From the NCBI GenBank assembly GCA_963840035.1, contig CAWIXE010000002.1:608001-672000 (forward strand): 64,000 nt of DNA, in the 5' to 3' direction. A model generated the notes under the pieces. That model did not search any database, was not told the origin of the DNA, and saw only the letters and a program-made list of their open reading frames with translations. Each line of letters begins with the position of its first letter. Positions within the stretch are counted from its first letter, which is position 1. The stretch comes from a candidate division FCPU426 bacterium. Its GTDB lineage: Bacteria > Oederibacteriota > PGYV01 > Palsa-1178. Shown here one piece after another: positions 1 through 60,964 of the stretch. Both the position numbers and the translations under genes were made by a program.

Positions 1-1
1 C

Positions 2-1159
2 ATGCAGGACGCGGACCCGTTTGGACTGATTGCCGGCGATACCATCGCGGGCGGGGACGTCAAAGCCACGCTGTTTGGCCTTTTTAAAATTTCCGGTGAA
101 TTTGAATATTCAAATTATTACGCCAGGTACGTGACATCGACTCCGATGCCTTACACGCAAAAAGGCTCGGCCATGTACGCGAATCTGGTACCGTCATTTT
201 TACCGAAGCAGATTTACCTCGGGGCCAGGTATACCAGGATAGACCCTGATTATGTGGCGCCGGCATCCGGCGTATCCGATACGAGCGTCAAATCAATTGA
301 CGCGGCAGACCCGGCAAAAGTCAAACTGGACAGCCTGACCACGATATCCGACCCCACAACTCTTGAAAACAATATGAACAAGATTGAAGTATCGGCCCGG
401 CTGAATGTGCCGTACTGCCTTTTAAGGCTTAACTATGGAGTGTCCTCGCAGCTTAGGGCGACGGGAAATATGTTCTATTCCAGGAGGTATGTCATAGGGA
501 CGTCCATCTGGTGGAACGCGTTTTACTCCAACTACGGTTTTCTGGACACCGCCTCAGGCCAGCACGCGGCAATTATAAATTACAATAATAACAGGTATGA
601 TTATGACCCGTCTTTGACAACCTACAGGCTCGCTGAGATAATGGCGGGCGGGAATGGCGGCCTCGCGACAGACGAATGGACATCCTCAAGGGAGTTCATG
701 GTCTCTTCGGACGTCACAAAAGACACGATAAAATATAAAACAAACGCGGTCGCCGATTTAAGGGTTGAATTGAGCAGGTTTGTAGGCCTGCGTCAGCCTC
801 TCTTTCTGCACGCTTACGGTGAACTCAACAGCCTTTCAAACGGGACTGATTACATAGTCAAGTATGACCCGGCGAGGCTTTTTTCCCAGCTTATTTTAAC
901 TTCAACAATCGTTTACAACCCCGTGAACAATATCTGCATCCTCGGATATTTCGGCTCTGAGGCGTGGGCGTCAAAAAGCACGCTGCCGCATGAGATTGAC
1001 TACCTTGACTGCATGGCCGGTCTCGGCGCTGATTTTGACATATCGGGCAGGGCCGGCCTTTTTATAAGGGTAAAGAATTTTTTCCATAAGGATAAGTTCA
1101 TATCCGGCAATAATTTCCACGGATGGCAGATAACAGGCGAGCTTAAGAGTTTCTTCTAA
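2..1159 (+). CDS. Outer-membrane beta-barrel protein, C-terminal part (5' truncated by window edge)
   Basis: Alternating amphipathic strands; ends ...GELKSFF (terminal Phe); shares GEFEYSNY and GLGADFDI...D....NNF motifs with the next ORF. Confidence 0.7.
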   Translation: MQDADPFGLIAGDTIAGGDVKATLFGLFKISGEFEYSNYYARYVTSTPMPYTQKGSAMYANLVPSFLPKQIYLGARYTRIDPDYVAPASGVSDTSVKSIDAADPAKVKLDSLTTISDPTTLENNMNKIEVSARLNVPYCLLRLNYGVSSQLRATGNMFYSRRYVIGTSIWWNAFYSNYGFLDTASGQHAAIINYNNNRYDYDPSLTTYRLAEIMAGGNGGLATDEWTSSREFMVSSDVTKDTIKYKTNAVADLRVELSRFVGLRQPLFLHAYGELNSLSNGTDYIVKYDPARLFSQLILTSTIVYNPVNNICILGYFGSEAWASKSTLPHEIDYLDCMAGLGADFDISGRAGLFIRVKNFFHKDKFISGNNFHGWQITGELKSFF

Positions 1160-1180
1160 TATATTACGGAGGTAATTAAA

Positions 1181-3289
1181 TTGAAAAGAATAATCATCGT
1201 GTTGACGGCGGCTTTGTTGCTGCCGTGTATGCCTGCCATGGCAGTACCGGCGCCGGATAAAGCGTATCAGGACATTATGACGCTTTCGTCATCAGGCGTT
1301 ATACCTGAAAAACCGGCAAAGGCGCAGATTACCAGGGATGAAGCGTTGATTCTGGTTGAATCCGGGGTTAAAAACGTAACAGCGGGTAATTACGGGGCGT
1401 CAAAAGCGGAACTTGAAACGCTTTATGGACTTGTAAAAATGTTTACGACAGACATGATGGAAAAGGGAAAGGACCTGGGGGAGATAGAGGATATCCTGGT
1501 CGACCTTAGGATGCGTTCGGAAAGTTCGCGCATGAAAAATATTGAGGATAAACAGGAAGCCATATCCGGAACCATAGGGCTTAAGATTAACGGCGATGCT
1601 TCAGTTAACATGGTGGACCTTCTTTTGACCGGGAACGCGTTCCCGCTGGAGAGGGATTACAGGCCCGTCACGCAATACATTGACCTCATATTTTCAGCAC
1701 ATCAGTCGGACAAGCTTTCGGCTGAAGCGGTTTTCAGGATCGAGAGCCTTTTTGGCAGCTACTGGAGCGCCATGAATATATACGGCGTCAGGAAACTGAA
1801 TATACACGGAAATTACCCGGTTTCATTTGACGCGGGAGTATATCAGGCAAAATTAACGCCGCTTACATTATGGGCTGTGGATGATGACAGGCCCTTTGAG
1901 GCGGCATTTTTTAAGAATAAGAGGGATATGATAAAGAAAGAACTGTATCTCGAAGATGAAATGTGGCCGCTGACAGGCTTAAAACTGGCATCGGATTTTA
2001 AATTATTCGGTGAAACGCAGTTCAACGCGGCGCTAATGGCGGCAAGGATTGCCGTGGCAAACGACACTTCAACGACCTCATATGCCTCATATGTAAACGC
2101 CCCGTCATATTCGGCCAGTGCCGGAGCCTTATACACATGCCCGCATGACAGGTATATGCTGGCGGGAAGGCTATCGACAGACCTGTCGTTTAAGGACAAA
2201 GTAACCTTTGGCCTTAACGCTGTTGAAATAACGGATATCAAAGAGACAGGGCTTATTAAAATGTCGCCATCCATGAGCAATCTGGTGGCATCAGCGGACG
2301 CTGAGGTCAAGGTGTTTGACTGGCTGAAACTTAAGGGCGAATATGCCATGTCTGATTACTATGTCACGACGTCACAGTCGGCGCAGGTGTGGAACAACAG
2401 GGACAACTGGGATTCCGCGCTGATGGCGGGGCTTGAGGCGGAAGGATTCGGGCTTAAACTTGACGGCTCGTTCAGGGTCAACGGCGACGTTTTTACCTCG
2501 TACGCGGCACAGTCAAGGACATATGACGGGTTTGCCAACTTCGCATATCTGACGGAAAATAACACATGGAACGTATCAATGGCGCCGCCCGCGTTTTCAC
2601 TTAATAACGCGGCGTTCCCGCTCACAAAATATAACGCGTCTATAAACGGAAGTTACGCCGCAACCGGCAAGAATCTGATGCCGTTTGTTTTTTATGAGAA
2701 TAACTCCATGCCTTACGGCGGGTCAACGCCTAACAGGCAGGGTCTTGATGTAAAAATAGGCGGCGATTATTTCGGATCGGCTATAATGCCGTCAGCCCGC
2801 TACTCTTACTACCAGGAGCTCGTGTCACACATGCCGGGCTCACAGGCTACATCGCCCAGGACTTTTCAGGCCGTTGAAGGCGGCATCAAGTCAAAACTTG
2901 GCAATATCTCCGCGGGCGCCGGATACAAACTTGAAATGACGGAAAACACATCAATAGGAGGCCAGGTGGAACTTACTGCACAGATAATAGACGCTTCCTT
3001 TGATTATGGGATAACCCCGAAGTTAGGCGTTCACGCCGGCTTTAAAGGCAATATATTTGCCGGCAAGGATTGCCCGTATACATATACGTCGGGTTCGGGG
3101 ATGGCTTTCGGAGTTTTAAAATCCTATGACGCTACAATACTTAAGTGGGGGCTTGGAGTGGATTATGAAATATTAAAACAGGCGACTGCCAGGCTTTCAT
3201 TCGCGCACACTTATTTTACGGATAACCTTGAATCATCGAATAATTTTACGGCGCAGGAGATCGATCTGAGCGCTGTCATGACATTCTAA
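1181..3289 (+). CDS. SLH-like + coiled-coil + beta-barrel outer-membrane protein (OmpM/SomA-like architecture)
   Basis: RBS GGAGG before TTG; signal peptide; AYQDIMTLSSSGVI...ITRDEAL resembles SLH; heptad stalk; barrel ending LSAVMTF. Confidence 0.7.
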   Translation: MKRIIIVLTAALLLPCMPAMAVPAPDKAYQDIMTLSSSGVIPEKPAKAQITRDEALILVESGVKNVTAGNYGASKAELETLYGLVKMFTTDMMEKGKDLGEIEDILVDLRMRSESSRMKNIEDKQEAISGTIGLKINGDASVNMVDLLLTGNAFPLERDYRPVTQYIDLIFSAHQSDKLSAEAVFRIESLFGSYWSAMNIYGVRKLNIHGNYPVSFDAGVYQAKLTPLTLWAVDDDRPFEAAFFKNKRDMIKKELYLEDEMWPLTGLKLASDFKLFGETQFNAALMAARIAVANDTSTTSYASYVNAPSYSASAGALYTCPHDRYMLAGRLSTDLSFKDKVTFGLNAVEITDIKETGLIKMSPSMSNLVASADAEVKVFDWLKLKGEYAMSDYYVTTSQSAQVWNNRDNWDSALMAGLEAEGFGLKLDGSFRVNGDVFTSYAAQSRTYDGFANFAYLTENNTWNVSMAPPAFSLNNAAFPLTKYNASINGSYAATGKNLMPFVFYENNSMPYGGSTPNRQGLDVKIGGDYFGSAIMPSARYSYYQELVSHMPGSQATSPRTFQAVEGGIKSKLGNISAGAGYKLEMTENTSIGGQVELTAQIIDASFDYGITPKLGVHAGFKGNIFAGKDCPYTYTSGSGMAFGVLKSYDATILKWGLGVDYEILKQATARLSFAHTYFTDNLESSNNFTAQEIDLSAVMTF

Positions 3290-3305
3290 TAAACGGAGGG
3301 AAAAA

Positions 3306-5453
3306 ATGACCAAAGACAGATTTTTATTGTTCGCATTCGCAATAGCCGTGCTTATAGCCGGCTGCGCAGGGGGTGCTGTAATGGCTGATGGAAGTGCTGG
3401 AAGCGGAAAGTATGTGTGGAAAAGCGTTATCGCCGGCGGCGGCGGATTTATAGACGGGATTATTTACCATCCCGCGGAAAAAGGGCTTGTATATCTGCGA
3501 ACCGATATGGGCGGGGCTTACAGGTGGGATGACACCGCGAAAATTTGGATATGCTTAAATGACATGTTCACAAGGTCTGAGGCTGATAATTACGGCATAT
3601 TAAGCCTTGCTGTTGACCCGGCAGACGCGAATAAAGTCTATATGATGACAGGCAAGTACACGCAGGACTGGGCGGGTAAAGGCGTATTTTTAGCCTCAGA
3701 CGACAGGGGCAAGACATGGAAAAAAACCGGCCTTGATTTCAAGGTTGGCGGCAATGAGGATGGAAGGGGCTGCGGAGAAAGGCTCGCGGTTGACCCGAAT
3801 AAACCATCTGTGCTTTTCATGGGCTCAACAAAGAACGGCATGTGGAAATCAACAGACAGCGGCGAAACATGGGAGCAGGTAAGTTCGTTCAAGCCGGTAA
3901 ACATAAACTTCATAGCTTTTGACCCGGCAAGCGGGAAAAAGGGCTCGGTTTCAAAAAGAATATTCGCGTCGGCAGCGGATACATCAAAGTCCATATATGT
4001 ATCCGAGGACGCGGGTAAGTCATGGAAAGCTGTTGTGGGACAGCCTAAGAAATTAATGGGAATCAGGAATGATGTTGTGAAAGGCTTTTTATATGTAACT
4101 TTTTCCGACGGGCCGGGGCCTAACGGCGCGACTATGGGCGCGGTATATAAATACGACATAGCGGAAGGGGCATGGACTGACCTTAAACTTCCTGAAGGGC
4201 CGGGCGGATTTTCCGGAATATCAGTAAACCCGAAAGACCCGAAAAACATCATAGTATCATCGCTCGACAGGTGGGGCGGCCCGGATGATGTTTTCCTTAC
4301 ATTTGACGGCGGAAAAACATGGGCACAGAAAATAAAAGGCGCGAAATGGGATAATTCTTACGCCCCTTATACGGCGAAAAATTTTACTCCGCACTGGATA
4401 GCTGACGTTAAGATGGACCCGTTTGACCCCAACAGCGCCATGTGGGTGACCGGATACGGGCTCTGGGCCACGAATAACCTGAAGGATGAACCCTGCACGT
4501 GGTATTTCAATGACAAAATAATAGAACAGACCGTACCGCTTGAGATAATAAGCCCTCCGTCCGGAGGCGCGCACTTGGTCTCGGCGCTGGGGGATGTGGA
4601 CGGGTTCAGGTACGTGGATGATTTTGATAAATCGCCCGCAGACAGGCATTCGCCTCCGAGCTGGACGACACTTTCCATGGCGTGCGCGTGGAACTCGCCT
4701 GATTTTATGGTAAAGACAATAAATAAACCCACGTTCGGCGCGTATTCCGAAGATAACGGAATTACCTGGAAGAATTTCGCGAAGAAGCCGGAGGGCGCGA
4801 AAAGCGGCGGCGGCACAAGGTCGATATGCGTATCAGCCGACGGAAAATCCATAGTGTGGTATCCGGAAAAAGCCGAACTCTATTTTTCAAAGGATAAAGG
4901 CGCTACATGGACCAAATCCAACGGCGGAGTGCCGGGAATAAGGCCGGTTGCCGATACAGCAAACGCATCAAAGATATACGCGTACGACGGTGCCACCGGC
5001 ACCATGTGGGTATCAAATGATTACGGCGAGAATTTCTCAAAAGGTTCCGCTAATTTTGATTTCGTGCAGAAATGGACTGTTGATGACTGCATGGCTGCTG
5101 CTGTCCCGGGTAAAGAGGGGCATGTATGGGTTACGGCAGACACTAAAGGCCTCTTCCGCACAAAGGATTCTGGAAACAGCGCGAATAAGATTGAAGGCGT
5201 TGATGAAGCATACAGGCTCGGGTTCGGCAAGGCAGCGCCGGGTAAGGATTATCCCGCAATATTTATCGTGGGCAAAGTCGGCGGTGTTTACGGTTTCTTC
5301 AGGTCGGATGACGAAGGTTCTTCCTGGACACGCATAAATGACGACGAGCACCAGTACGGCTGGATACACTGCATCATAGGAGACCCGAGGATTTATGGCA
5401 GGTGCTATGTGGCGCTTGAAGGCAGGGGCGTTGCTTATGGGGATTTACAGTAA
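3306..5453 (+). CDS. GH74 xyloglucanase (lipoprotein)
   Basis: Lipobox LIAGC; GGGGFIDG, YLRTDMGGAY, SALGDVDG catalytic Asp motifs; BNR SxDxGxTW repeats. Confidence 0.92.
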   Translation: MTKDRFLLFAFAIAVLIAGCAGGAVMADGSAGSGKYVWKSVIAGGGGFIDGIIYHPAEKGLVYLRTDMGGAYRWDDTAKIWICLNDMFTRSEADNYGILSLAVDPADANKVYMMTGKYTQDWAGKGVFLASDDRGKTWKKTGLDFKVGGNEDGRGCGERLAVDPNKPSVLFMGSTKNGMWKSTDSGETWEQVSSFKPVNINFIAFDPASGKKGSVSKRIFASAADTSKSIYVSEDAGKSWKAVVGQPKKLMGIRNDVVKGFLYVTFSDGPGPNGATMGAVYKYDIAEGAWTDLKLPEGPGGFSGISVNPKDPKNIIVSSLDRWGGPDDVFLTFDGGKTWAQKIKGAKWDNSYAPYTAKNFTPHWIADVKMDPFDPNSAMWVTGYGLWATNNLKDEPCTWYFNDKIIEQTVPLEIISPPSGGAHLVSALGDVDGFRYVDDFDKSPADRHSPPSWTTLSMACAWNSPDFMVKTINKPTFGAYSEDNGITWKNFAKKPEGAKSGGGTRSICVSADGKSIVWYPEKAELYFSKDKGATWTKSNGGVPGIRPVADTANASKIYAYDGATGTMWVSNDYGENFSKGSANFDFVQKWTVDDCMAAAVPGKEGHVWVTADTKGLFRTKDSGNSANKIEGVDEAYRLGFGKAAPGKDYPAIFIVGKVGGVYGFFRSDDEGSSWTRINDDEHQYGWIHCIIGDPRIYGRCYVALEGRGVAYGDLQ

Positions 5454-5500
5454 TCACAAATCCCATGCTTCGACAAGCTCAGCATGTAATCACATATCCC
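5451..5500. repeat. AATCMCA heptamer repeat with nested REP-like hairpin
   Basis: taatcaca-aatccca-[tgcttcgacaagctcagcatgt]-aatcaca-tatccc; same heptamers uninterrupted at 50153-50180. Confidence 0.6.
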
Positions 5501-5559
5501 GAGTTGAACAGGTAATATCAAACAGGTAAAGAAATAAAACTAATTCAAGGAGGAGAAAC

Positions 5560-6159
5560 ATGAAGAAAGTTCTTGCACTGATGGGAATTGCAGTGGTAAT
5601 GGTTTTTGCGGGATGCGCGTCAACAGGCGCGGCTGCGGATACTTCGGCATCTGCTGCGCCGGCAGCTTCGACTGCGCCGGTAGCCGGAAACACGTTCGTG
5701 ATATGCAATTTTGAGTCGAAAACAACTGACGGGTTTGAAGGCAAAGGGAAATGGGCGGATGCATTAAAGGTAAATGATGACGCCAAGTTTGTAAAGGAAG
5801 GCAAGTATTCGCTTAAGATAAACGCAAAGGGAAGCACGGGCTGGAACCAGGACATTGCCGTAAGCGCGGGCCCTTTTCCGGACAAATTTAACAGGTTAAA
5901 GGCGATAACAATGGACGTTTTTGTGCCGAAAGAATCCATAAAGGGAACCGAATATTTTCAGATATTTTTTGTGGTGAACGGTTCGGCAAACGCGTGGTAC
6001 CAGGTACCGCAGGGCCTCAAAGAAGGCTGGAATTCGCTTGAATACAAGATAGATACAGACAACGTCTCCGGCGACATATGGCACGTTTATATGGTATTTA
6101 ATTCCGGCGGGACACTCGCAGGGCCGGTTTATATCGATAATATAGCAGGTCAGTACTAA
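5560..6159 (+). CDS. Lipoprotein with single CBM-like (galactose-binding-fold) domain
   Basis: Lipobox FAGC, Ala-rich linker, FE...EGKYSLK...DVFVP...WYQ...GWN...VYIDNI pattern. Confidence 0.75.
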   Translation: MKKVLALMGIAVVMVFAGCASTGAAADTSASAAPAASTAPVAGNTFVICNFESKTTDGFEGKGKWADALKVNDDAKFVKEGKYSLKINAKGSTGWNQDIAVSAGPFPDKFNRLKAITMDVFVPKESIKGTEYFQIFFVVNGSANAWYQVPQGLKEGWNSLEYKIDTDNVSGDIWHVYMVFNSGGTLAGPVYIDNIAGQY

Positions 6160-6175
6160 GTATAAACGGATAATC

Positions 6176-6220
6176 AATGCGGCGCCCGGGCTGTATAAAG
6201 GCCCGGGCAGCCGCATTTTT
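6176..6220 (+). terminator. Intrinsic terminator
   Basis: aatgcggcgcccgggc...gcccgggcagccgcatt hairpin followed by T run. Confidence 0.7.
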
Positions 6221-6358
6221 AAGAATACAATGAAATAACACGTCTTAATATCGGTGTAAGCGATTCCGGAAACATCGCGAAGGCCGGGGTTTCACCGCAT
6301 AAACAGGCACGGCAGCATAGCTGTCCCGGAAAGGGACATGAATATTACGGAGGAAACG

Positions 6359-9094
6359 ATGAAATATACGGTAAAAAGCAGCGGAATTGAAGTAACACTG
6401 GGAAAGAATGTATTAAGCGTGGAGCCATATTCGCCCGGGATTATCAGGGTGAAGTGCGGGCCAAAGACGGCTAAAAAAAGGGAAAGCCTTTCCGTGGTTT
6501 TAAAGCCGGAAAACTTCAGGTGGTCGATAACCGAGGAAAAAAACTGCCTGTGGGTGCTGGCCGGCGGTCTTAAGGTGAAAGTTGAGGGCGCGGGAACCGT
6601 GAGGTTTTATGATGCGGCCGGAAAACTCCTGCTCTCGGAAAAATCATCCGCTAAAAAACTCAAACCGTCGACGGTGTCCGGCGAAAAATGCATTAACTCC
6701 TCGCAGGGGTTCCTGCGTTCGGCTGATGAAGCCATTTACGGGCTGGGACAGTATGAGGAAGATTTTATGAACTATAAAAACTGCGAAGTGCTCATGATTC
6801 AGGCAAACAGGGTGATAGTCAATCCTGTGATAACTTCCACAAAAGGCTGGGCTATGCTGTGGGACAATTATTCAGAGACCGTGTTTAAGGCGGGGGAAAC
6901 GGACTTCTCGTTTGACTCTGAAGTTTCCGACGGCATTGATTATTATTTCATGGCGGGCGGCTCCATAGACGGCGCCATAAAGCAGTACAGGAAATTAACC
7001 GGGGCCGCGCCCATGTTCCCGAAATGGATATTCGGTTTCTGGCAGTCAAAGGAACGTTATACTGACCGCGACGAGCTCATTTACATAATTAAGGAATGCA
7101 GGAAAAGGAAGATACCCTTAGACAGCATAGTACAGGACTGGCGCTACTGGGGTGAGAACGAGGTTTTCTCGGGTATGGAGTGGGAAAAGTACCGTTTTCC
7201 GGACCCAAAGAAGATGATGAAGGAAATACACGACCTGCACGCGCACCTGATGTGCTCGTTCTGGCCTGCGCTCGGCCCGGATTCAAAACCGCATAAGGAA
7301 CTCGCGGCAAAAGGTCATATGTTCAAGGGCCCGCACTGGACAGGGTCAAAACTTTACGACGCTTTTTCACCGGAGGCCAGGAGCATATACTGGAAACATG
7401 TAAAAAAATGCCTTTATGACAACGGCGTGGACGCATACTGGATGGACGGCACTGAGGCTGAATTCTTGTCGGCAGAGGACAGGTACGTACTCGCCGAAAC
7501 ATACAAGGCCAATGGCAAAAATGAACTTGGAACTATGGCAAGGTATTTAAACGCCTTTTCGCTGATGACCACAAAAGGCGTTTATGAGAATCACCGCGCA
7601 GTTTCCAATAATAAAAAGAGGGTATTCACTCTGACCCGGTCCTCTTTCGCCGGACAGCAGCGCAACGCTGCTGCTGCGTGGTCAGGGGATACATTCGCCA
7701 GTTGGGAAACATTAAAAGGCCAGGTATCGGCCGGCATTAATTTCTCCGCGTCAGGCCTGCCTTACTGGACCAGCGATATAGGCGCTTTCTACCCGTTCTT
7801 TAAATATAAGGAGCCGTTAAAGGACGCGGCATACAAAGAATTATATCTGCGCTGGTTCCAGTTCGTGGCATTTACGCCGATTTTGCGCGTGCACGGAACA
7901 GCCGCGCCAAGGGAAGTGTGGAGATTCGGCAACCCGGGAAGCGTGGAATATGATACGCAGATGAAGTTCATAGAGCTTAGGTATAAGCTTTTGCCTTACA
8001 TATATTCAACGGCCTGGAAAGTAACGAGCCAGGGATACTCGTTCATCCGTCCGCTGGCATCGGATTTTGCCGGGGATAAAGCCGCGGTAAATTGCGGTAC
8101 GCAGTACATGTTCGGGGAGTCTTTGATGGCGTGCCCTGTGACCAAGGAACTTTACAGGGAAACAACGCACAAAGGCGATTACATTTATTATAAGAACCTC
8201 TTTACACCGGACGGCAAGGAACACGGGCTGATATACGAGATATACAACGGAGTTGATTTCAAGGACCTGCGATGCACCAGGAAACTTGATACTTCCTCCA
8301 TGGGATGGGCAGGAAATATTCCGGCGGACATTAAACTTGAATATTCGCAGAGATGGACAGGAAAGATACTCACAAACGAAGCCGGCAAATATGATTTTAC
8401 AGCCATTACAGACGGTAGCGTCAGAATCTGGCTTAACGGGAAGCTTGTCGTGGACGCGTGGGATAACAGGGAAGAAAAACGTTTTGATTTCTCCGCGAAA
8501 CTCAAAGAAAACACCAAGTACTCCATAAAGCTCGAGCACCAGCAGTTCCGGATGAAGCAGGCAATAATGAGGCTGAACTGGCATACCCCGGCAATGAAAA
8601 AAGATGAGGCAAAGAAATCAATAAATGTTTACATGCCTGCGGACAAAAAATGGGTGGATTTCTGGACAGGCAAAGCAACTGTATCGGGTAAGGTGTTGGC
8701 CTTAAAGCCGGCGCTTGATACCATGCCGCTATACGTGGCTGCGGGTTCCATAATCCCCGTAGGACCGGCTATGCAGTATGTCACTGAAAAACCGGCGGAC
8801 CCGCTCGAACTGCGCGTGTATCCCGGCGCTGACGCCTCTTTTGAGCTGTATGAGGATGAAGGAGACGGTTATGACTATGAAAAAGGCGCATTTTCAATCA
8901 TATCCATAAAGTGGTTTGACAGGTTTAACACTCTTGTTATCGGGAAAAGGCAGGGAAAATTCCCGGGCATGATGAATGAGCGCACCTTTAAGGTGGCCCT
9001 GGTTAAACCCGGACGCGGCACAGGCATAAAGGAAACACCAAAAGCTGATGCCGTAGTAAAATATGACGGGACGGAAAAGACGGTAAAAATTTAG
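6359..9094 (+). CDS. GH31 alpha-xylosidase with inserted PA14 domain
   Basis: YWMDGTE nucleophile motif, WSGD, YWTSDIG, LYEDEGD C-terminal; PA14-like segment (SQRWTGKI...TDGSVRIWLNGKLVVDAW); no signal peptide; RBS GGAGG. Confidence 0.9.
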   Translation: MKYTVKSSGIEVTLGKNVLSVEPYSPGIIRVKCGPKTAKKRESLSVVLKPENFRWSITEEKNCLWVLAGGLKVKVEGAGTVRFYDAAGKLLLSEKSSAKKLKPSTVSGEKCINSSQGFLRSADEAIYGLGQYEEDFMNYKNCEVLMIQANRVIVNPVITSTKGWAMLWDNYSETVFKAGETDFSFDSEVSDGIDYYFMAGGSIDGAIKQYRKLTGAAPMFPKWIFGFWQSKERYTDRDELIYIIKECRKRKIPLDSIVQDWRYWGENEVFSGMEWEKYRFPDPKKMMKEIHDLHAHLMCSFWPALGPDSKPHKELAAKGHMFKGPHWTGSKLYDAFSPEARSIYWKHVKKCLYDNGVDAYWMDGTEAEFLSAEDRYVLAETYKANGKNELGTMARYLNAFSLMTTKGVYENHRAVSNNKKRVFTLTRSSFAGQQRNAAAAWSGDTFASWETLKGQVSAGINFSASGLPYWTSDIGAFYPFFKYKEPLKDAAYKELYLRWFQFVAFTPILRVHGTAAPREVWRFGNPGSVEYDTQMKFIELRYKLLPYIYSTAWKVTSQGYSFIRPLASDFAGDKAAVNCGTQYMFGESLMACPVTKELYRETTHKGDYIYYKNLFTPDGKEHGLIYEIYNGVDFKDLRCTRKLDTSSMGWAGNIPADIKLEYSQRWTGKILTNEAGKYDFTAITDGSVRIWLNGKLVVDAWDNREEKRFDFSAKLKENTKYSIKLEHQQFRMKQAIMRLNWHTPAMKKDEAKKSINVYMPADKKWVDFWTGKATVSGKVLALKPALDTMPLYVAAGSIIPVGPAMQYVTEKPADPLELRVYPGADASFELYEDEGDGYDYEKGAFSIISIKWFDRFNTLVIGKRQGKFPGMMNERTFKVALVKPGRGTGIKETPKADAVVKYDGTEKTVKI

Positions 9095-9101
9095 GAGGCA
9101 T

Positions 9102-12020: not shown

Positions 12021-12031
12021 AAGGATGTAAA

Positions 12032-14184: not shown

Positions 14185-16136
14185 ATTATTTAAAGTTCTT
14201 TTTGCTTCTTTCCGTAATTATTGTGCTGAGCGCGGCTTTTGTTTTTGCCTCGCCGCAAAAGGCCTCACTGAAATTGAACTCTATTTTTACGGACCACATG
14301 GTACTGCAGCGCGACACCGCCGTATCCGTTTATGGAAAAGCAGCCGCCGGATCAAAGGTGGTTGTTGAGATTGCGGGGCAGACATTAACGGCAAAAGCGG
14401 GAAGCAAAGGGGATTGGTCCGCGAAACTGCAGCCAATTCCGGCAGGCGGGCCGTATGAGATGAATGTCATATCAGGAAATGAAACGGTTTCCGTTAAGGA
14501 TATTTTAACGGGCGATGTGTGGTTCTGTTCGGGCCAGTCAAACATGGAATGGATACTCTCAAATACGACGGATGGCGCTGAAGAACTTAAAGGCTTTAAG
14601 ACAAATCCGAATATTAGGCTTTTTCTGCAGGAACAGCTGCCGGCAGCAAAGCCGCTCACTGATCCGGCAGGAAAGTGGGCTGAATGCGACGCTGAAAACG
14701 CGAAGAATTTTTCAGCAATAGCGTATTTTTTCGCGAATAATTTATCAAATGAGCTTAAGGTGCCGATAGGCGTTATTGATTCATCCTGGGGCGGTACATC
14801 CATAGAGATCTGGATGGACCAGAATCTTTTAAAGGGGAATCCGGTTACAAAGCCCATACTTGACAGGTGGAAAGACAATCCGGTTTTTGACTGGAAAAAC
14901 TGGAATTATGGAAAAGGAATGAATTATTCCATAGAAGTATCTGAACTGCGTTTTTATGATTCCACAGGCAAGGCTGAACCTGCGTACGTGAACCTTACGC
15001 CAACTGACAGGAACGCGCTTGGCGGGTCATGGTATGGCTGGGCAAAGCCGGGTTCCACGGCTGAAGCGGCGGCAAAAGCAAAGGCGTGCGACATATCGGG
15101 AATTATAGGCTTCAACGCCTGGGCAGGCGCGGGAACGCTCCTGAAAAACGGCGAAGAAGCAGACCTTTCAAAGTATGACAGGATTATATTTAAAGTGCGC
15201 GGCAGCGGAAAGTTTTCCGTATCGTTGTGCCAGAATACGATAATTGACTATGATTATTATTCCACGCAGGATTTTGACGCGGTAAAAACATGGAAAGACA
15301 TATCCGTGCCGATTGCCGCGTTAAAACAGGGTGGATGGGGGCTCGCAAAGCCTTTTACGCAGAATGCCATCAAGCAGCTGCAGTTCAACATAAAGTCTAT
15401 GACTGTGGAGCTGCCGTCGGCTTTATATAACGGCATGGTGATGCCGTACGCGAAATTCCCGATAAAAGGATCCATCTGGTACCAGGGTGAGAATAACGCG
15501 AACAGGGCGCTGCAGTACGGAATGCTGCTTCCCATGATGATAAAGAACTGGCGTAATATATGGAATATCGGAGATTTCCCGTTCATCCTGGTTCAGCTGC
15601 CGAATTTCATGGAGCGCAAGGCGGAGCCTGGCGAGAGCGAATGGGCCGAGCTGCGCGAGTCTCAGCTTAACGCGCTCAGCCTTACGAGCACGGCTGTTGT
15701 GGCATCCATAGACATCGGCGACCCGAAAGATATACATCCCAGGCTTAAAAAACCTGTCAGTTACAGGCTTGCCCAGGCAGCGCTTAATGTGGCGTACGGA
15801 AAGGATGTCGTACCCATGGGGCCGGTATATGAGGCCATGAAAATAGACGGGAACAGGATAACGTTGTCATTTAAGTATACGGGCAAGGGTTTAAAGTCAA
15901 AGGACGGATCGTTAAAAGGTTTTTCAATTGCGGGAAATGACAAAAAATTCGTCTGGGCAAACGCGGAAATAAAGGATGACAAAGTGGTAGTCTGGAGCGA
16001 CTCTGTCAGGGAACCCGCGTCGGTCAGATATGCCTGGGCTGATAATCCGGAATGCAATCTTTATAATGAAGAAGGGCTCGCGGCTTCGCCTTTCAGGACG
16101 GATAACTGGCCGGGGTTAACGCAGGATAGATTTTAA
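14181..16136 (+). CDS. Sialate O-acetylesterase family (SASA) carbohydrate esterase with inserted CBM11-like domain
   Basis: GDVWFCSGQSNM, WYQGENN, DIHPR, VRYAWADNP..FRTD motifs; insert DLSKYDRIIFKVRGSG. Confidence 0.88.
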   Translation: MNYLKFFLLLSVIIVLSAAFVFASPQKASLKLNSIFTDHMVLQRDTAVSVYGKAAAGSKVVVEIAGQTLTAKAGSKGDWSAKLQPIPAGGPYEMNVISGNETVSVKDILTGDVWFCSGQSNMEWILSNTTDGAEELKGFKTNPNIRLFLQEQLPAAKPLTDPAGKWAECDAENAKNFSAIAYFFANNLSNELKVPIGVIDSSWGGTSIEIWMDQNLLKGNPVTKPILDRWKDNPVFDWKNWNYGKGMNYSIEVSELRFYDSTGKAEPAYVNLTPTDRNALGGSWYGWAKPGSTAEAAAKAKACDISGIIGFNAWAGAGTLLKNGEEADLSKYDRIIFKVRGSGKFSVSLCQNTIIDYDYYSTQDFDAVKTWKDISVPIAALKQGGWGLAKPFTQNAIKQLQFNIKSMTVELPSALYNGMVMPYAKFPIKGSIWYQGENNANRALQYGMLLPMMIKNWRNIWNIGDFPFILVQLPNFMERKAEPGESEWAELRESQLNALSLTSTAVVASIDIGDPKDIHPRLKKPVSYRLAQAALNVAYGKDVVPMGPVYEAMKIDGNRITLSFKYTGKGLKSKDGSLKGFSIAGNDKKFVWANAEIKDDKVVVWSDSVREPASVRYAWADNPECNLYNEEGLAASPFRTDNWPGLTQDRF

Positions 16137-16155
16137 AAACATGAAAGGTAGTGCA

Positions 16156-17244
16156 ATGATGAAAAGAAAAATATTGTTATTGGCAGTTTGCGCGCTGGCA
16201 GCGCTTATTGTTTTTCAGTCGTGCGCGTCAGCGTTTTTGGAAAAAGCCGGTGATAACGCAGTGGAAGGATTTAATGTAAATACTAAATTTGCATGGACTA
16301 CAGGGGCGCCTGTAATACTGCCGCAGCCGGAAAAAGGGCGTGAAGTTGTATCTGCAAAAGACCCGAGCGTTCTGTTTTATAACGGTAAATGGTATGTGTT
16401 TTATACAACCTGCGATACTAAAGGCGCATGGAGCATGCAGTTTGTTAGTTTTAAGGATTGGAAGGACGCGAAAAAGGCAAAAGCTTATCCCAAGGACAAC
16501 AATCCAAACCTGCAGGGATATCACTGCGCGCCGAATGTGTTTTATTTTACGCCCCAGAAGAAGTGGTACATGGTATTCCAGTCAGGCCAGCCGCAGTATA
16601 CGACAAACGATAATATAGACAATCCTGACGGATGGACAAAGCCGCAGGATTTTTTCAATGGAGCCCCTCCGGGACTGGAAAAAGGTCAGTGGGGCCCGGA
16701 ATGGCTTGATTTTCATGTGATTTGCGATGATAAAAACGCGTACTTAATGTTTACCGGGGATAACGGGAGATTGTACCGCAGCAGGACAAAACTTGAGGAT
16801 TTTCCCAATGGCATGGGCAATCCTGAGCTTTGTCTTAAGGGCAAGGAGAGGGGCGACGTGTTTGAAGGTTCTATGGCTTACAAAATAAAAGGTCAAAATA
16901 AATATCTTCTGATTGTTGAGGCGTTTGGCGCGCCTACTTATGACAGGTACTACAGGAGTTTTGTGGCTGATTCGCTTGACGGCGAGTGGAAAGAACAGGC
17001 AGGTACTTGGGAAAACCCGTTTGCCGGTTTGAATAACGTTAAATTTGATGAAGGCGTAACACCCTGGACAAAGGATATAAGCCACGGGGAACTTATACGG
17101 ACAGGTTATGATGAGAAGATGGAACTGGACCCTGAAAACATTCAGTTCCTGTTCCAGGGACGCGCGCCCGAGAGCAACGGCATGCAGTATCATTTACTTC
17201 CTTATAAAATAGGGCTATTAAAGGCTGTTAAAACTCAAAAATAA
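16156..17244 (+). CDS. GH62 alpha-L-arabinofuranosidase (lipoprotein)
   Basis: Lipobox FQSC; KDPS, APNVFYF.PQKKWY, LDFHVICD, FEGS, DISHGELIR motifs. Confidence 0.88.
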   Translation: MMKRKILLLAVCALAALIVFQSCASAFLEKAGDNAVEGFNVNTKFAWTTGAPVILPQPEKGREVVSAKDPSVLFYNGKWYVFYTTCDTKGAWSMQFVSFKDWKDAKKAKAYPKDNNPNLQGYHCAPNVFYFTPQKKWYMVFQSGQPQYTTNDNIDNPDGWTKPQDFFNGAPPGLEKGQWGPEWLDFHVICDDKNAYLMFTGDNGRLYRSRTKLEDFPNGMGNPELCLKGKERGDVFEGSMAYKIKGQNKYLLIVEAFGAPTYDRYYRSFVADSLDGEWKEQAGTWENPFAGLNNVKFDEGVTPWTKDISHGELIRTGYDEKMELDPENIQFLFQGRAPESNGMQYHLLPYKIGLLKAVKTQK

Positions 17245-17380
17245 CATGTTCGCTAAGCGGCAAAAAAACAACGGGTGAAAATTTGTTCTGTTTTCCACTG
17301 TCACGTGAAAAACAGAGCCTTTTGCATCTTTTTGTATTTAGAAACGCTATATTTGAGCAGTACATAGATCCTCGCGCAAA

Positions 17381-17464
17381 TATGCCTGCCGGGGGGGTCA
17401 AATTTTCTTATGGCCTGCGCTACTGCGCAATCCATAAGAAAATATGCCCCCCCCGGCAGGCATA
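17381..17464. repeat. Long imperfect inverted repeat (~84 bp hairpin)
   Basis: tatgcctgccggggggg..attttcttatgg ... ccataagaaaat..cccccccggcaggcata. Confidence 0.8.
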
Positions 17465-17524
17465 AATGGAAAAGCTCCGGGGCAGAACTAACCCGTTAAT
17501 TTGTAGGGCCTCTTATTTCGTGTC

Positions 17525-17548
17525 GTAGGGGCGATTCACGAATCGCCC
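17525..17548. repeat. GTAG-type REP element
   Basis: GTAG followed by palindrome GGGCGATTC-AC-GAATCGCCC. Confidence 0.65.
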
Positions 17549-17606
17549 GCACTGTCACGGTACTTCGTTTTGGATGGAATACGTAATACGACTACAAGGA
17601 GGTAAA

Positions 17607-19578
17607 ATGAGAAAAGTATGTCTTATATTTTTGACAATTTCACTGTTTTCAACAGCTTTACTTGCGGGTACCATGGATACTACGATAGCGGTAAATACTA
17701 CAGTGACGGTGAATACGTTCAAGCCGTTTAATGTTTTCGGAAATAATACCAACGGATGGACAAATCCTGTGGCTGTGAAGGATAAGATACAGGGCGCCGG
17801 AAATTATCTGTCTGCGCTATCCAGGAGGCTCGTGGGGCGATTCCTTTTTCTGGAACAGCAAAGGCGAATACGATAAGGACGGCAACTGGTCGCCAGGCAC
17901 AGCTGAATACGGGAAAAGCACAACCGGAGATCTTGTATATCACCAGAAATATATGCTTGATGATGATAAAACAACCGCGTGGAAGTCTAACGCCGATACC
18001 GATTTCCCAAACAGCCAGTGGGTGTACCTGGATTTAAAAGAAAAGAAAAACCCGGATAAATTGACCATATCATGGGGCAGTCCATACGCGAAAAAGTTCA
18101 CTGTCCAATACTGGGACCCGGCGGACGGCAGGCAATGGATGCCGTATGACGCCGATAAAAGTTCATGGCTTGATACGTCGGCAAAAGAGACAGCCGGCAC
18201 CGGTGGGGTACAGGAAGTATCATTTTCGCAGGTTAATACACAGTATGTAAGGATACTATTGACAGCCAGTTCTGAAGGGAAATCCGGTATTTACTCGGTT
18301 GTGGACTTGGACATATTTGAAAACGGACGGTCAATACTTTCCAAAGACACAAATTCAGTTGTGGTTTCCTCCTGCGATACTGCGGCAAAACTTGACGCTA
18401 ACGGGCCTTCGTGGATATTTGGGTTTGAACAGTATATGGAATTCATGAAGTCCTTCGGCCCGATTAAAGCCGAGCCTCTGATTATAGTGAATCTGGGCAG
18501 CGGCACGCCTGAGATGGCCGCGGCGTGGGTTAAATACGCGAATAAAGTTAAGGGTTACGGTATTAAGTACTGGGAGATTGGAAACGAAAGCGGAGGCCAG
18601 TGGGAAACCGGCGGCCCTATGAATGTGTATGACTATACCAGGCGCTATATCAAATACTATGAAGCAATGAAGGCTGTGGATCCGTCTATTACAATCATCG
18701 CACAGGGGCAGGCGGACGGAAAATCATTAACTTATGACGGGGTTTCAGCCATCGAGGCGTTTTTAGGAAGGCTTGCGAAAGAAAAGAAAACACATTACGC
18801 CGAAGGGCTGGTGACCCACCAGTACCCGAACTGGGGGCAGAAACTTGAGGATCTGCTCGCGTCGCCAAAAAAAGGCATGGAAGATACGGCCTCGCAGGTT
18901 AAAAAAGCGCTGGCCAAATACCCAAAACTGAAAAACATACCTATATGGATAACGGAGTTTAACACGTCGGACCAGGTAAAGCCGCAGGATATCAGCGTGC
19001 ACCTGGAAAACGGACTGTGGCTCGCGCAGTATATGCCAGAGTTCATACGCCAGTTCGGAAATAGGGGTTACATGGCCATGTGGGATGTTATGAATGGCGG
19101 CAGCGCGATAAATAACCCGACAGGCGGCGATCATGGTTACCTGCAGTCTGAAAGCGGGCCGTATCAGCATCAGGAGCGCGCCGATTACTGGACCATGAAA
19201 ATGATGACGAATTACTGGGCAACCCCCGGGGATGTCAGGGAGCATACGATGGTTGAGGCGGAATCCGGAAACCCGATGCTCGCGGCATACGCCAACATAA
19301 AGCCTGATAAAACACTAGCGCTGCTCGTTGTAAATAAGGACCCGGAGAATGCGTATAATTCAGCGATAACTATAAGCGGATACACACCCGTGCAGGAAGC
19401 GAAAACCTGGAAGTTTGACAGTGATAATTATAAATGGGATGCCGGTTCTTTACCTTATCACGCAAACCCGGATAACCCTCCCACGGAGTCGGCAATCAAC
19501 TACGCCGGGGAGAAATTTAATTTTGAGTTCAAACCTTATTCTATAACAGTCATAGAACTTAAGAAAAAGCAGGATTAA
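17607..19578 (+). pseudogene. Clan GH-A glycoside hydrolase (GH44/51/79-like) with inserted F5/8 discoidin domain; apparent +1 frameshift near 17810
   Basis: RBS + signal peptide at 17607; removing 1 nt in tatctgtctgcgc gives GNYLLRYPGGSWGD continuing into ORF 17953-19578 (YWEIGNE, WITEFN); intact paralog at 37337. Confidence 0.8.
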
Positions 19579-19606
19579 TAGCATATGTGGATAATGGAGG
19601 TAATTA

Positions 19607-21520
19607 ATGAAAAGGAAACTAAGTTTACTGATATTGTCCTTTATGTTCGTTATTGCCGCGTTTGCGGCTTTTGCGGCAGACGCACCATTTACTGTGGTTC
19701 CATGGAACGGGTATAAGGCAGCGGTTTCGCTGACGTATGACGACGGCGACCCCGTACACCTGGACCTTGTAATACCTGAAATGCAAAAGAGGCAGATGCG
19801 CGGCACATTTTTCCTTACCGCGGGTAATATATTAAGGAGCGAAGAATGGGCAAAAGCAGCGGCCTCAGGAATGGAGATAGGAAACCATTCCATGAAGCAC
19901 AGGCACGCCAATGAACTCACAGCCGCGGATGAAATAGAAGAAGTGGATACAGCGGGCAAAATATTAAAGGAACTTTCAGGACAGCCTGTGATGACCTACG
20001 CGTACCCGTTTGTCGAGATTACAAGCACCTTAAGGGCGCGCGTTGAGAAGGAATGCATCATGGCAAGAGGCGGCGGGCCGGGATACTATTATTACACACC
20101 TGATTCGGAACCTGACTGGTATAACATACACAGCCAGGGGACAGCTACTGAATATGGCTTTGAAAAATATAAGGACTGGATAGACCAGGACATGGAAACA
20201 GGCGCGTGGACAGTGTTTATGATACACGCCATAGAGGGCTCAAACTGGTTCCAGCCGGTGCCTAAAGACACTTTTATTAAGCTCCTTGACTATTTATACA
20301 GTAACCGCGGAGATGTCTGGACTGCGCCATTTGGCGAAGTAGGGGCGTACTGGAAGGCGCAAAAAACCATCGAGGCCGCTAAGATCGCGGATAAAAAAGG
20401 CAAAAAAATCATTAAGTGGAAAAAACCTGTGCCGTTCCCCGAGGGAGTTGTCCTAAAGGTACGCGTTAATACCGAAGGCAATATGCTCACCCAGGCCGGA
20501 CAAAGGGTGCAGCCAATCGGGGATAATATCTATCCGGTTTCGTTTGACGCGGGTGAAATGACCATAGAGAAGGCCATGAAGAAAGATGTTTCTTTACAGG
20601 TAAACAACAAACCCGGTTTTTATACGGAAGGTAAGAAGATACTCGCCCCGGGAGGCGAAGAAGTGGTGTTTCGCGGCATTAATGAGATGTTTGTGTGGAC
20701 GGACAAAGAAGGGGCAAAACTGCCGGAGATCGCGAAAACAGGCGCAAATTGCGTGAGGATAGTTTGGACCATAAAGGACGGGACAAAGGAAGAACTTGAT
20801 AAGGTAATCACAAAATGTATCGCCAATAAAATGATACCGATAATCGAACTTCATGACAAGACGTGCAAGTGGGATGATGATGTGTTTAAGGACCTCACAG
20901 CATACTGGACAGACCCGGAAATGGTGAAGATAATACAAAAACATGAAAAGTACCTCTTTATAAATTACGGAAATGAGATTGGCGACTGGAAAGTTACATC
21001 TGAAGAATACAGCGCAAAGTATTCCGCGGCCATTAAAGCCATGAGAAAGGCGGGCGTCCATGTGCCCATTATAATCGACGGCGCCAAATGCGGGCAGGAC
21101 ATGAATTTCTTTTATGCTGTTTCTGAAGATATAAACAAAGCCGACCCGGACCATAACTTCATATTTTCCGTGCATATGTGGTGGACTGACAATGACCCGG
21201 TAAGAATTCAGGACGCCATCACCACGGCGGCTTATACAAAAGTCCCCCTTATTGTCGGCGAGTTTGCGGCAATGGGTGTCGGTTGCGCCGCAAATGTAGC
21301 GTATAAGACCATACTTGAAGAGTGCGCTAAGAATAATGTCGGATGGCTCGCGTGGTCATGGGGCCCGGGCAACAGTGATTGCGCGCTTATGGACATGACA
21401 AAGGACGGTAAATTTGACACGCTCTACGGATGGGGAAAAGAAACTGCCCTGGATGATAAATACAGTATTAAAAACACATCAAAGATTCCGGAATATATTA
21501 AGCAAATGAAGGCGGAATAG
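19607..21520 (+). CDS. CE4 polysaccharide deacetylase fused to GH5 (GH5_8-like) beta-mannanase
   Basis: TYDDG and NHSMKH CE4 motifs; NYGNE, FSVHMW, VGEF, WLAWSWGPGN GH5 motifs; signal peptide. Confidence 0.85.
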   Translation: MKRKLSLLILSFMFVIAAFAAFAADAPFTVVPWNGYKAAVSLTYDDGDPVHLDLVIPEMQKRQMRGTFFLTAGNILRSEEWAKAAASGMEIGNHSMKHRHANELTAADEIEEVDTAGKILKELSGQPVMTYAYPFVEITSTLRARVEKECIMARGGGPGYYYYTPDSEPDWYNIHSQGTATEYGFEKYKDWIDQDMETGAWTVFMIHAIEGSNWFQPVPKDTFIKLLDYLYSNRGDVWTAPFGEVGAYWKAQKTIEAAKIADKKGKKIIKWKKPVPFPEGVVLKVRVNTEGNMLTQAGQRVQPIGDNIYPVSFDAGEMTIEKAMKKDVSLQVNNKPGFYTEGKKILAPGGEEVVFRGINEMFVWTDKEGAKLPEIAKTGANCVRIVWTIKDGTKEELDKVITKCIANKMIPIIELHDKTCKWDDDVFKDLTAYWTDPEMVKIIQKHEKYLFINYGNEIGDWKVTSEEYSAKYSAAIKAMRKAGVHVPIIIDGAKCGQDMNFFYAVSEDINKADPDHNFIFSVHMWWTDNDPVRIQDAITTAAYTKVPLIVGEFAAMGVGCAANVAYKTILEECAKNNVGWLAWSWGPGNSDCALMDMTKDGKFDTLYGWGKETALDDKYSIKNTSKIPEYIKQMKAE

Positions 21521-21525
21521 CGCGT

Positions 21526-23031
21526 ATGAAATATAAAAATCCTGTAATACCCGGGTTTTACCCGGACCCCAGTGTCTGCTGTGTCGGCGGGGATTTTTAC
21601 CTTGTCACCAGCAGCTTTGAGTATTTTCCCGGTGTACCCATATTTCACAGCCGCGACCTGGTTAACTGGGTGCAAATAGGCCACGTCCTTGACCGCAAGA
21701 GCCAGCTGCCGCTTGAAAAAGCAGAATGTTTTTCAGGGATATACGCACCCACCATAAGGTATCATGAAGGCACTTTTTATGTGACAACAACAAACACATC
21801 CGGTATTGGAAATTTTATCGTATCAGCCAAAAACCCGCAAGGGCCGTGGTCGGACCCAATAGCAGTACCTCAGGGAGGGATCGATCCATCGCTTTTTTTT
21901 GACGCGGATGGAAGCGTATATTACACTACATCCGGCGGGGGCGCGCTGCAAAGTAAGATAGACATAAAAACAGGCAGGCTGCTCACCGAACCTGTGCTTG
22001 TATGGAAAGGCACAGGCGGAAGATATCCTGAAGCGCCGCATTTGTATTTTATAAATGGATGGTATTATTTAATGCTGGCGGAGGGCGGCACGGGATACGA
22101 GCATATGGTCACTATGGCGCGTTCTAAAAGTCCGTGGGGGCCTTTTGAACCCTGTCCGCGCAATCCAATACTGACACACAGAAGCATACCGAGCCTGATC
22201 AGGGCAACCGGACATGCTGATCTTGTTTTTACAGGGGAACACTGGTTTCTGGTATTCCTGGGAGTGCGCACATCAGGCTACGACGATACGCATAACCTGG
22301 GGCGTGAGACATTTTTAAGCCCTGTGACATGGCATGAAGACGGATTCCCGGTGATAGGCAATAAAGGCATAATATCGGCTGAGATGGAGTCGCCTTTGGC
22401 TCCTGTTTTGGTACCTGAATTGCCTGCGCGTGATGATTTTAACTCGGATAGAATTGCTTTTTACTGGAATTATCTGCGTAACCCCGATGAAAATTTGTAT
22501 TCGTTAATAGAACGTCCCGGGTTCCTGCGGCTCAAGGGATCAAAGTACGGCCTTGACGATGTCGCGCCGACAGTATGGCTGGGCAGAAGGCAATGCCACC
22601 ACAACGTTAAGGCAGCGGCCTGTATCGAGTTTAAACCTTATAGCGCAAACGAAGAGGCTGGGTTATGCGTGCGAAAAAATGAAAATCATCACTATGAAAT
22701 ATTCCTGTCGTTAAGGGGCGGTAGAACATGCGTTGTGTTGAGGGAAACGATAGCGAACCTGAAAGTCGAGGTTGCGTCCGCGCCCGTAACGGAAGGCGTG
22801 GCTGAGAGCTGCATATTGGCTGTTGAAGCGGATGTAAACAACTATAGTTTTTCATACGGCCCGTCTGAAAAAGACCTGATACCGCTGGGAAATGGAATTA
22901 CCCGCTATCTCTCATCGGAAATTGCGGGAGGCTTCACTGGAGTCTATTTTGCCATGTACGCCGCCGGAAACGGCAGGCCATGCAAAAATCCGGCGGATTT
23001 TGACTGGTTTGATTATGCCGTAAAATCATGA
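21526..23031 (+). CDS. GH43 beta-xylosidase/arabinofuranosidase
   Basis: NPVIPGFYPDPS, SSFEYFPG, IDPSLFFD, PEAPH, GGFTG; no signal peptide. Confidence 0.92.
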   Translation: MKYKNPVIPGFYPDPSVCCVGGDFYLVTSSFEYFPGVPIFHSRDLVNWVQIGHVLDRKSQLPLEKAECFSGIYAPTIRYHEGTFYVTTTNTSGIGNFIVSAKNPQGPWSDPIAVPQGGIDPSLFFDADGSVYYTTSGGGALQSKIDIKTGRLLTEPVLVWKGTGGRYPEAPHLYFINGWYYLMLAEGGTGYEHMVTMARSKSPWGPFEPCPRNPILTHRSIPSLIRATGHADLVFTGEHWFLVFLGVRTSGYDDTHNLGRETFLSPVTWHEDGFPVIGNKGIISAEMESPLAPVLVPELPARDDFNSDRIAFYWNYLRNPDENLYSLIERPGFLRLKGSKYGLDDVAPTVWLGRRQCHHNVKAAACIEFKPYSANEEAGLCVRKNENHHYEIFLSLRGGRTCVVLRETIANLKVEVASAPVTEGVAESCILAVEADVNNYSFSYGPSEKDLIPLGNGITRYLSSEIAGGFTGVYFAMYAAGNGRPCKNPADFDWFDYAVKS

Positions 23032-35575: not shown

Positions 35576-35590
35576 GTTTTCTGTTATGAA

Positions 35591-60944: not shown

Positions 60945-60964
60945 TGATAAGACGCGGAGGGAAA

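Follow-up and report, generated by a model that had tools for sequence, protein, structure and literature searches.

How are hemicellulose oligosaccharides brought across an outer membrane when the locus that encodes the degrading enzymes has no SusC/SusD pair? The locus that raises this question lies in a 3.46 Mb genome (three contigs, 98.3% complete) of an uncultured soil bacterium of the Goldiibacteriota, at the left end of the window, which is the whole 64-kb stretch of DNA that was analyzed (C2:608001-672000). A preliminary description, made from the sequence of the window, had reported a 23-kb co-oriented run of outer-membrane barrels and carbohydrate-active enzymes. The coordinates, Pfam, and PDB sequence matches agree with that run and its families, and the 12 plus-strand ORFs, with families taken from Pfam, are as follows.

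1..1159, + strand, 3' half of B1; the gene (775 aa) starts at C2:606832, 1168 bp before the window; SLH-like domain, coiled coil, predicted plug-less barrel; CHU_1276-type
1181..3289, + strand, B2 (702 aa); SLH-like domain ~24-105, coiled coil 99-131, predicted 22-strand plug-less barrel, C-terminal Phe; CHU_1277/FSU_2009-type
3306..5453, + strand, GH74 xyloglucanase; lipoprotein signal, Cys20; Pfam BNR/Sortilin repeats
5560..6159, + strand, CBM-like lipoprotein; Cys19; weak Pfam CBM_4_9 match (E 0.009)
6338..9094, + strand, GH31 alpha-xylosidase with PA14 domain (Pfam); signal peptide not seen
9102..12020, + strand, GH2 (Pfam); signal peptide; putatively beta-galactosidase-like
12032..14184, + strand, GH36 alpha-galactosidase (Pfam); frameshift near 13890
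14181..16136, + strand, SASA-family acetylesterase with an inserted CIA30-like domain (Pfam); signal peptide
16141..17244, + strand, GH62 arabinofuranosidase (Pfam); lipoprotein signal
17608..19578, + strand, unclassified clan-A-like GH with F5/8 domain ("GH-A"; Pfam); frameshift near 17810
19607..21520, + strand, CE4 and GH5 beta-mannanase (Pfam); signal peptide
21526..23031, + strand, GH43 with C-terminal ConA domain, xylosidase/arabinosidase-like; signal peptide not seen

PDB sequence searches matched the GH74 protein to a xyloglucanase (E 7e-224) and the GH31 protein to the alpha-xylosidase BoGH31A (E 1.5e-155), which bears out the xyloglucan toolkit proposed earlier, and matched the GH5 domain to a beta-mannanase (E 4.5e-32). 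The sole match of the GH-A protein was local and GH51-like (E 1e-11, residues 156-254); its orthologues are present in related barrel loci, and the copy of one relative is unbroken (670 aa, 62% identity). The C-terminal part of GH36 continues in another frame past ~13890, with a stop that overlaps the ATG of the SASA gene. Frameshifts in three genes (GH36, the unclassified GH, and an upstream TBDT) suggest assembly indels, with pseudogenes as a possible alternative. Only 16 bp separate the end of B2 from the start of GH74, and the lipoprotein at 5560..6159 has orthologues that are 58-59% identical and follow GH74 in three related loci. Pattern searches and inspection identified lipoboxes in an upstream solute-binding protein, GH74, the CBM protein, and GH62; by the same means, no signal peptide was seen in GH31, GH36, or GH43.

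Farther along the window, at 57177-63999, Pfam identified a GH5 and, in a protein of 1255 aa, binding domains of the mannanase type. This region had been read as a second locus repeating the same barrel. That does not hold: the 1255-aa CBM-barrel protein (57177-60944) was ruled out as a homolog of B1 and B2 (hhalign 1.0% and 0.4%), its C-terminal part matching neither of them, and the true second copy lies elsewhere in the genome, at C2:348792-353372.

The run had also been described as cut at the left edge, and indeed B1 starts outside the window. The locus continues for 7.5 kb upstream, with gaps of 95 bp or less, as far as an FGGY kinase.

C2:600530-604649, FGGY kinase, isomerase-like ORF, and GH29, upstream of the window
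near C2:604690, sigma70-like promoter (TTGACT-N16-TATAAT, found by eye) ahead of the CBM-like lipoprotein
C2:604745-605434, CBM-like lipoprotein, upstream of the window
C2:605438-606790, SBP_bac_1, ABC solute-binding protein (SBP), upstream of the window

The isomerase-like ORF has no Pfam match; our guess is that it is a xylose isomerase. Given the promoter-like element ahead of the upstream lipoprotein, the uptake unit probably begins at that gene and probably consists of lipoprotein-SBP-B1-B2-GH74-CBM lipoprotein. No permease genes were found within the locus. The nearest paralog of the SBP (48%) is located elsewhere in the genome, adjoining two permeases.

A search with PF07980, used as the sole SusD Pfam family, returned no matches in the genome and none in 99 genomes of the phylum, and the Bacteroides thetaiotaomicron control was positive; this supports the earlier claim of a SusD-less locus. 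The genome has five TBDT matches. A TBDT/SusD pair upstream had been considered, and the TBDT half of that idea has some substance, as B1 is preceded, at a distance of 10-14 kb, by an ExbB-ExbD-TonB-TBDT set. However, this set comes without SusD, it ends 3.7 kb before the FGGY kinase, and prfC and two unrelated ORFs stand between it and the sugar genes. By N-terminal inspection, the remaining four TBDTs are outside CAZyme clusters, one of them two genes from a CBM11 protein.

Homology between B1 and B2 runs along their length (99.7%, E 1.1e-26), and Pfam assigns neither to a family. In AlphaFold models (pLDDT 84.7 for B1 and 72.2 for B2), N-terminal helices lead into a barrel of 22 strands each, as counted from DSSP lists. 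No plug is present in the models, which are helical before strand 1, and neither protein gave a Pfam Plug/TBDT match. Two long inserts of B2 (224-261 and 435-518) carry many of the best-conserved residues of the family. The top structural matches are TBDT barrels in which the barrel part alone is aligned (5t3r, Z 14.1-15.4, rmsd ~4), and Foldseek returned generic barrel matches only (TM-score ≤0.39). The lack of a plug agrees with the earlier characterization of the barrels as unusual and porin-like. An identity as TBDTs was rejected for lack of a plug.

The N-terminus resembles that of Veillonella OmpM1 in sequence (8BYS, E 3.1e-12, the profile match being confined to OmpM1 residues 1-120) and in structure (8BZ2, Z 10.9, rmsd 2.6 over 82/83 residues). 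The Pfam SLH family PF00395 has no matches anywhere in the genome; with an OmpM-like N-terminus and this blank, the domain is a diverged SLH. CsaB (PF04230) was not found in the genome. According to the accessible part of PMC10628300, OmpM forms trimers, with 16 strands and an SLH/coiled-coil stalk, and SlpA has 30 strands; the stalk is therefore common to OmpM and B1/B2 and the barrel is not, and an identity as classical OmpM was rejected on strand number. B1 and B2 are thus predicted to be 22-strand plug-less barrels carried on an OmpM-like SLH/coiled-coil stalk.

B2 was detected in 45/99 genomes of the phylum with a single query and in 70/99 with a profile (23/24 in its own order), and some of these genomes carry several B1-B2 cassettes. 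CBM11 occurs in 55/70 barrel-positive versus 6/29 barrel-negative genomes, a tally in which kin are not independent. Across three phyla, B1 stands immediately 5' of B2 in 94/100 loci, some of them near-duplicates (19/22 in the own order, 35/38 in other loci of the phylum, 20/20 in Fibrobacterota, and 20/20 in Bacteroidota-type loci); CBM-like lipoproteins usually come next. The B1-B2 count leaves aside 17 of the 38 metagenome loci, each shorter than 6 kb, and one locus in which no barrel ORF was called (L161). Five of the six misses fall at contig ends, and the other has B1 present. The SLH-like start is found in 34/38 own-order barrels, 84/99 other barrels of the phylum, 0/47 from Fibrobacterota, and 0/37 of Bacteroidota type, as judged with a profile that was built from members of the phylum and is biased toward it.

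Gene contexts beyond the order are diverse. A Chitinispirillia record reads SBP-ABC-B1-B2-CBM11/30 lipoprotein, and its B2 matches 109/151 sampled genomes of the same phylum as that record. Many Fibrobacterota copies adjoin ABC transporters or GH94, three-gene B1-B2-B2' versions exist, and GH18/NagB or GH3 accompany some Bacteroidota-type loci. In 13 loci of one family (f22), the cassette is flanked by an RNA methyltransferase and by lepA/signal peptidase/hemN-type genes and comes with lipoproteins and no GH. A representative library gave 718 matches at E ≤1e-10, which include a stalkless group of ~570 aa with some members named Cytophagaceae. Cytophaga hutchinsonii itself was absent among 57 matches in one search of the family, and no plasmid homolog of the Cytophagaceae barrel was found.

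Within the own order, 16/22 loci contain a GH and 21/22 a GH or CBM, in accordance with the earlier expectation that homologs of the barrels would be linked to CAZymes. The second B1-B2 pair of the genome (C2:348792-353372; 30% and 37% identical) has GH9-like genes before it and CBM9- and CBM11-like genes after it, these labels resting on likeness to scanned relatives. In trees built without rows shorter than 640 aa, the B2 proteins of hemicellulose loci form one group (7 rows, SH-aLRT 100, 0/500 shuffles), as do the B1 proteins (5 rows, support 92); the B1 figures come from a quick tree, not from a completed IQ-TREE search. It should be noted that one locus (L007) was labeled hemicellulose from its GH35/GH29/GH44/GH62 neighbors after a first tree had been seen. 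An SBP that is 61-65% identical is present in 5/6 loci with GH74 or other hemicellulases, and four other genomes carry both cellulose-type and hemicellulose-type loci. On these sequence grounds, B1 and B2 belong to a paralog clade that goes with GH74/hemicellulase loci, and the same genome has a cellulose-type copy as well.

A published counterpart of this architecture is found in C. hutchinsonii. As described in the part of PMC12016534 available to us, chu_1276-1280 is an "atypical PUL" that encodes a pair of outer-membrane proteins, a pair of hypothetical proteins, and an endoglucanase, has no SusD, and is needed for cellulose use; chu_1276 is essential for that use, and the cluster is reported in only three related Bacteroidota species. 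CHU_1277 is cited in cello-oligosaccharide assimilation (PMC5553014, in part), and disruption of SusC/D in C. hutchinsonii gave no phenotype (PMC6247017). CHU_1279 has 375 aa and the key residues W89, F92, F180, Y253, F256, and F343 (PMC12016534, accessible portion). Eight metagenome loci encode, as their fourth gene, a lipoprotein of 374-378 aa in which all six residues occur within two positions of those in CHU_1279, five of them exactly. This fingerprint was present in 8/8 lipoproteins of 374-378 aa versus 0/13 control lipoproteins. The gene after the CHU_1279-like one belongs, in seven of the eight loci, to a protein cluster scanned as GH9, and the remaining locus (L149) is cut there.

Own-order B1 matches gene 1 of these CHU_1279-anchored loci (98.5%, E 3.6e-15) and not gene 2 (2.2%), whereas own-order B2 matches gene 2 (99.9%, E 6e-32) and not gene 1 (0.8%). 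From this cross-specificity, the locus is, as far as gene order and the CHU_1279 fingerprint establish orthology, a relative of chu_1276-1280. Compared with two Bacteroidota lipoprotein profiles, the lipoproteins of the locus gave 81% over 70 columns for the CHU_1278 type, which is weak, and 4% for the CHU_1279 type. The proposal of a distinct PUL architecture is not supported in the sense of an unprecedented one, the architecture being of the Cytophaga chu_1276-1280 type.

FSU_2009 of Fibrobacter succinogenes S85 was a named match and is a B2 homolog (profile pair 99.7%, E 1.5e-26), with a pairwise identity of 21-27% over short stretches. The published annotation, in its accessible portion, lists FSU_2007 as CBM30, FSU_2008-2010 as uncharacterized membrane proteins, FSU_2011 as a lipoprotein, and FSU_2012 as GH18; the CBM30-B1-B2-B2'-lipoprotein-GH18 order of Fibrobacter-type loci agrees with it. 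From the GH18 gene, we infer that FSU_2007-FSU_2012 correspond to Fisuc_1525-1530. In the available part of PMC6204037, Fisuc_1525-1529 are highly expressed and not induced by cellulose, and Fisuc_1525-1528 have a mean rlog of 11.4-11.9 with a CV of ~2% across all substrates. The mechanism of cellodextrin transport is stated as unknown (PMC6851124).

Our favored reading, which we consider reasonably probable, is that this is a SusC/SusD-free xyloglucan/hemicellulose locus in which tandem CHU_1276/CHU_1277-family barrels and CBM-like lipoproteins form a wall-tethered, TonB-independent oligosaccharide channel. The lipoprotein GH74 would cut xyloglucan at the cell surface, and the CBMs of the lipoproteins would keep its products at the pore. 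A hetero-oligomer of B1 and B2 may exist, the coiled coil probably making it a trimer (compare the three-gene versions), and in it the long conserved loops would gate the lumen. Import would most likely be by facilitated diffusion through B1/B2. In the periplasm, GH2, the esterase, GH62, and GH29 would trim side chains, and the SBP would deliver oligosaccharides to an ABC permease whose genes lie outside the locus, thereby upholding the gradient; GH31, GH36, GH43, and a xylulokinase would finish the breakdown in the cytoplasm. A wider proposal, on which we are evenly divided, is that B1/B2 constitutes an ancient glycan importer of the outer membrane, a second one alongside SusC/SusD, common to Goldiibacteriota, Fibrobacterota, and cellulolytic Bacteroidota. 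It would supply the cellodextrin channel that Fibrobacter and Cytophaga have been missing, with cellulose, xyloglucan, and chitin paralogs, and its Goldiibacteriota form would be a wall-tethered hetero-trimer of 22-strand channels on an OmpM-type stalk.

Several observations sit uneasily with a channel: the housekeeping setting of the f22 loci, the constitutive Fisuc_1525-1529, the lack of a permease in the locus, the TonB set upstream, the TBDT near a CBM11 protein, and, for the wall tether, the absence of PF00395 and CsaB matches from the genome. The first two, together with the OmpM-like tether, fit barrels that act as an abundant wall-anchored scaffold: the CBM lipoproteins and the enzymes displayed on it would serve adhesion and digestion at the surface, and sugars would enter via general porins. 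So do the loss of cell-associated beta-glucosidase activity in chu_1276/1277 mutants (PMC5553014, in part) and the finding that CHU_1279 is important more for being present than for what it binds (PMC12016534, accessible portion). We regard such a platform as unlikely. The SLH part is missing from the Fibrobacterota and Bacteroidota barrels, in which barrel and loop motifs are kept; substrate-linked paralogs and nearby ABC transporters fit a selective pore, and the impaired growth on 0.1% glucose after chu_1276 disruption fits uptake (PMC12016534, in part).

More doubtful still are energized importers, in which TonB-ExbBD or another inner-membrane motor would pull an internal loop or the stalk instead of a plug. 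The barrels are the same size as those of TBDTs, an ExbB-ExbD-TonB set is within 10-14 kb, and F. succinogenes up-regulates TonB/ExbBD on cellulose with no matching receptor identified (PMC6851124). However, a plug is neither predicted nor matched, the upstream set comes with its own TBDT, and no tonB/exb gene was seen recurring beside barrels in related loci (clusters and Pfam of cluster representatives). Export or surface display of the adjoining lipoproteins and enzymes is highly improbable: lipoproteins are almost always adjacent and usher barrels occur among the structural neighbors, but B1 and B2 have no periplasmic chaperone, POTRA, or TPR domain, the usher matches are poorer (rmsd 5.4-6.2), and the SBP and ABC linkage indicates inward transport.

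The locus connects genetically proven Cytophaga genes, named and highly expressed Fibrobacter proteins, and a third phylum. It bears on the question of how cellulose fragments are imported without SusC/D in Fibrobacter and Cytophaga, and the homologs make experiments feasible in these two culturable organisms. PUL prediction tools based on susC/susD gain a marker from the re-use of the module for hemicellulose. The Cytophaga chu_1276/1277 barrel family was already known; the stalk, the ABC binding protein, and the hemicellulose paralog clade are what differs here. Our literature search, in which subscription journals were thinly covered so that an earlier mention of the Fibrobacter homolog is possible, found no prior three-phylum link, Fibrobacter or Goldiibacteriota membership, or stalked form. 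We take Goldiibacteriota to lie outside Terrabacteria, and in such a lineage a 22-strand barrel with an OmpM-like stalk is unexpected. SLH/OmpM proteins are reported, in the available part of bioRxiv 2021.05.31.446380, to be practically absent outside Terrabacteria. The accessible text on the Goldiibacteriota lineage describes many cellulases and CBM11 domains and does not mention TonB, Sus, or porins (PMC7031533).

The closest known system is chu_1276-1280, with which the locus shares tandem B1-type then B2-type barrels, an adjacent endo-glycanase, and the absence of SusD. CBM-like lipoproteins occur in both but are not clear orthologs, and the SLH-like domain and long stalk on each barrel, the xyloglucan/mannan enzymes, and the co-encoded ABC SBP set the present locus apart. 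FSU_2007-2012 has three barrels without SLH, whereas the locus here has a stalked B1-B2 pair. Veillonella OmpM1 and Deinococcus SlpA likewise place an N-terminal SLH-like domain and a coiled-coil stalk before the barrel, but B1 and B2 have 22 predicted strands, form an obligate tandem pair in glycan loci, and occur without CsaB. The Bacteroides ovatus xyloglucan SusC/SusD PUL has overlapping enzymes (GH31 is near BoGH31A), surface lipoproteins, and a 22-strand barrel; here, in contrast, there is no plug and no SusD, and an SBP/ABC route serves the inner membrane. LamB/MalE, ChiP, and CymA are sugar porins linked to ABC importers, in which a periplasmic binding protein drives facilitated diffusion. 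The working principle of B1/B2 is likely the same, with a fold similarity that is generic only (Z 11-13) and a barrel that is larger, paired, and equipped with dedicated lipoproteins.

Around the hemicellulose locus that contains the tandem predicted 22-strand, plug-less outer-membrane barrels B1 and B2, the following features were annotated (window coordinates unless marked; C2, contig CAWIXE010000002.1; L001 and L002, flanking stretches).

C2:592935-596831 (L001:2935-6831), ExbB-ExbD-TonB-TonB-dependent transporter operon
23242-24438, PAS histidine kinase, directly after the hemicellulose locus
30335-31426 and C2:585580-586656, IS30-like transposase copies (HTH_38, weak rve)
33625-37189, - strand, four tandem proteins of 235-294 aa, each with a signal peptide and an aromatic residue at the C-terminus
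37289-39898, paralogue (32%) of the locus's unclassified clan-A-like GH, carrying a stalk rich in Thr and a C-terminal domain that weakly matches the T9SS type
57177-63999, continuing into L002:1427-2071, a 1255-aa protein, a double GH5 protein and a lipoprotein

The histidine kinase is a possible regulator; no cognate response regulator was seen adjoining it. At least three frameshift-like breaks fall inside 35 kb, and one of them splits the transporter gene of the TonB operon. The first of the four tandem proteins has a weak OMP_b-brl match. At least three further paralogues of the unclassified GH occur in the genome, and together these proteins may represent a GH family without a name.

The genes at 57177-63999 are a candidate for a separate, single-copy mannan uptake module with no kinship to B1/B2. 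The 1255-aa protein has galactose-binding domains of mannanase type, and its C-terminal region, ending in Phe, is predicted to be barrel-like.

In other genomes, members of family f22 carry a lipoprotein-B1-B2-B2'-lipoprotein cassette (B2', a third barrel) at a fixed site, with an RNA methyltransferase gene on one side and lepA/hemN/hrcA-like genes on the other (L038, L041, L066, L069, L072, L075, L077-L083), which suggests a vertically inherited core copy. Fibrobacterota barrels (L064, L110, L112-L116, L121, L122, L124) lie alongside ABC transporters with family-5 solute-binding proteins, and often GH94 phosphorylases; this combination would constitute a full cellodextrin uptake operon. Finally, B1/B2-type barrels accompanied by GH18, NagB-like or GH20 genes (L134, L137, L157; L118, L119) are the predicted chitin versions.
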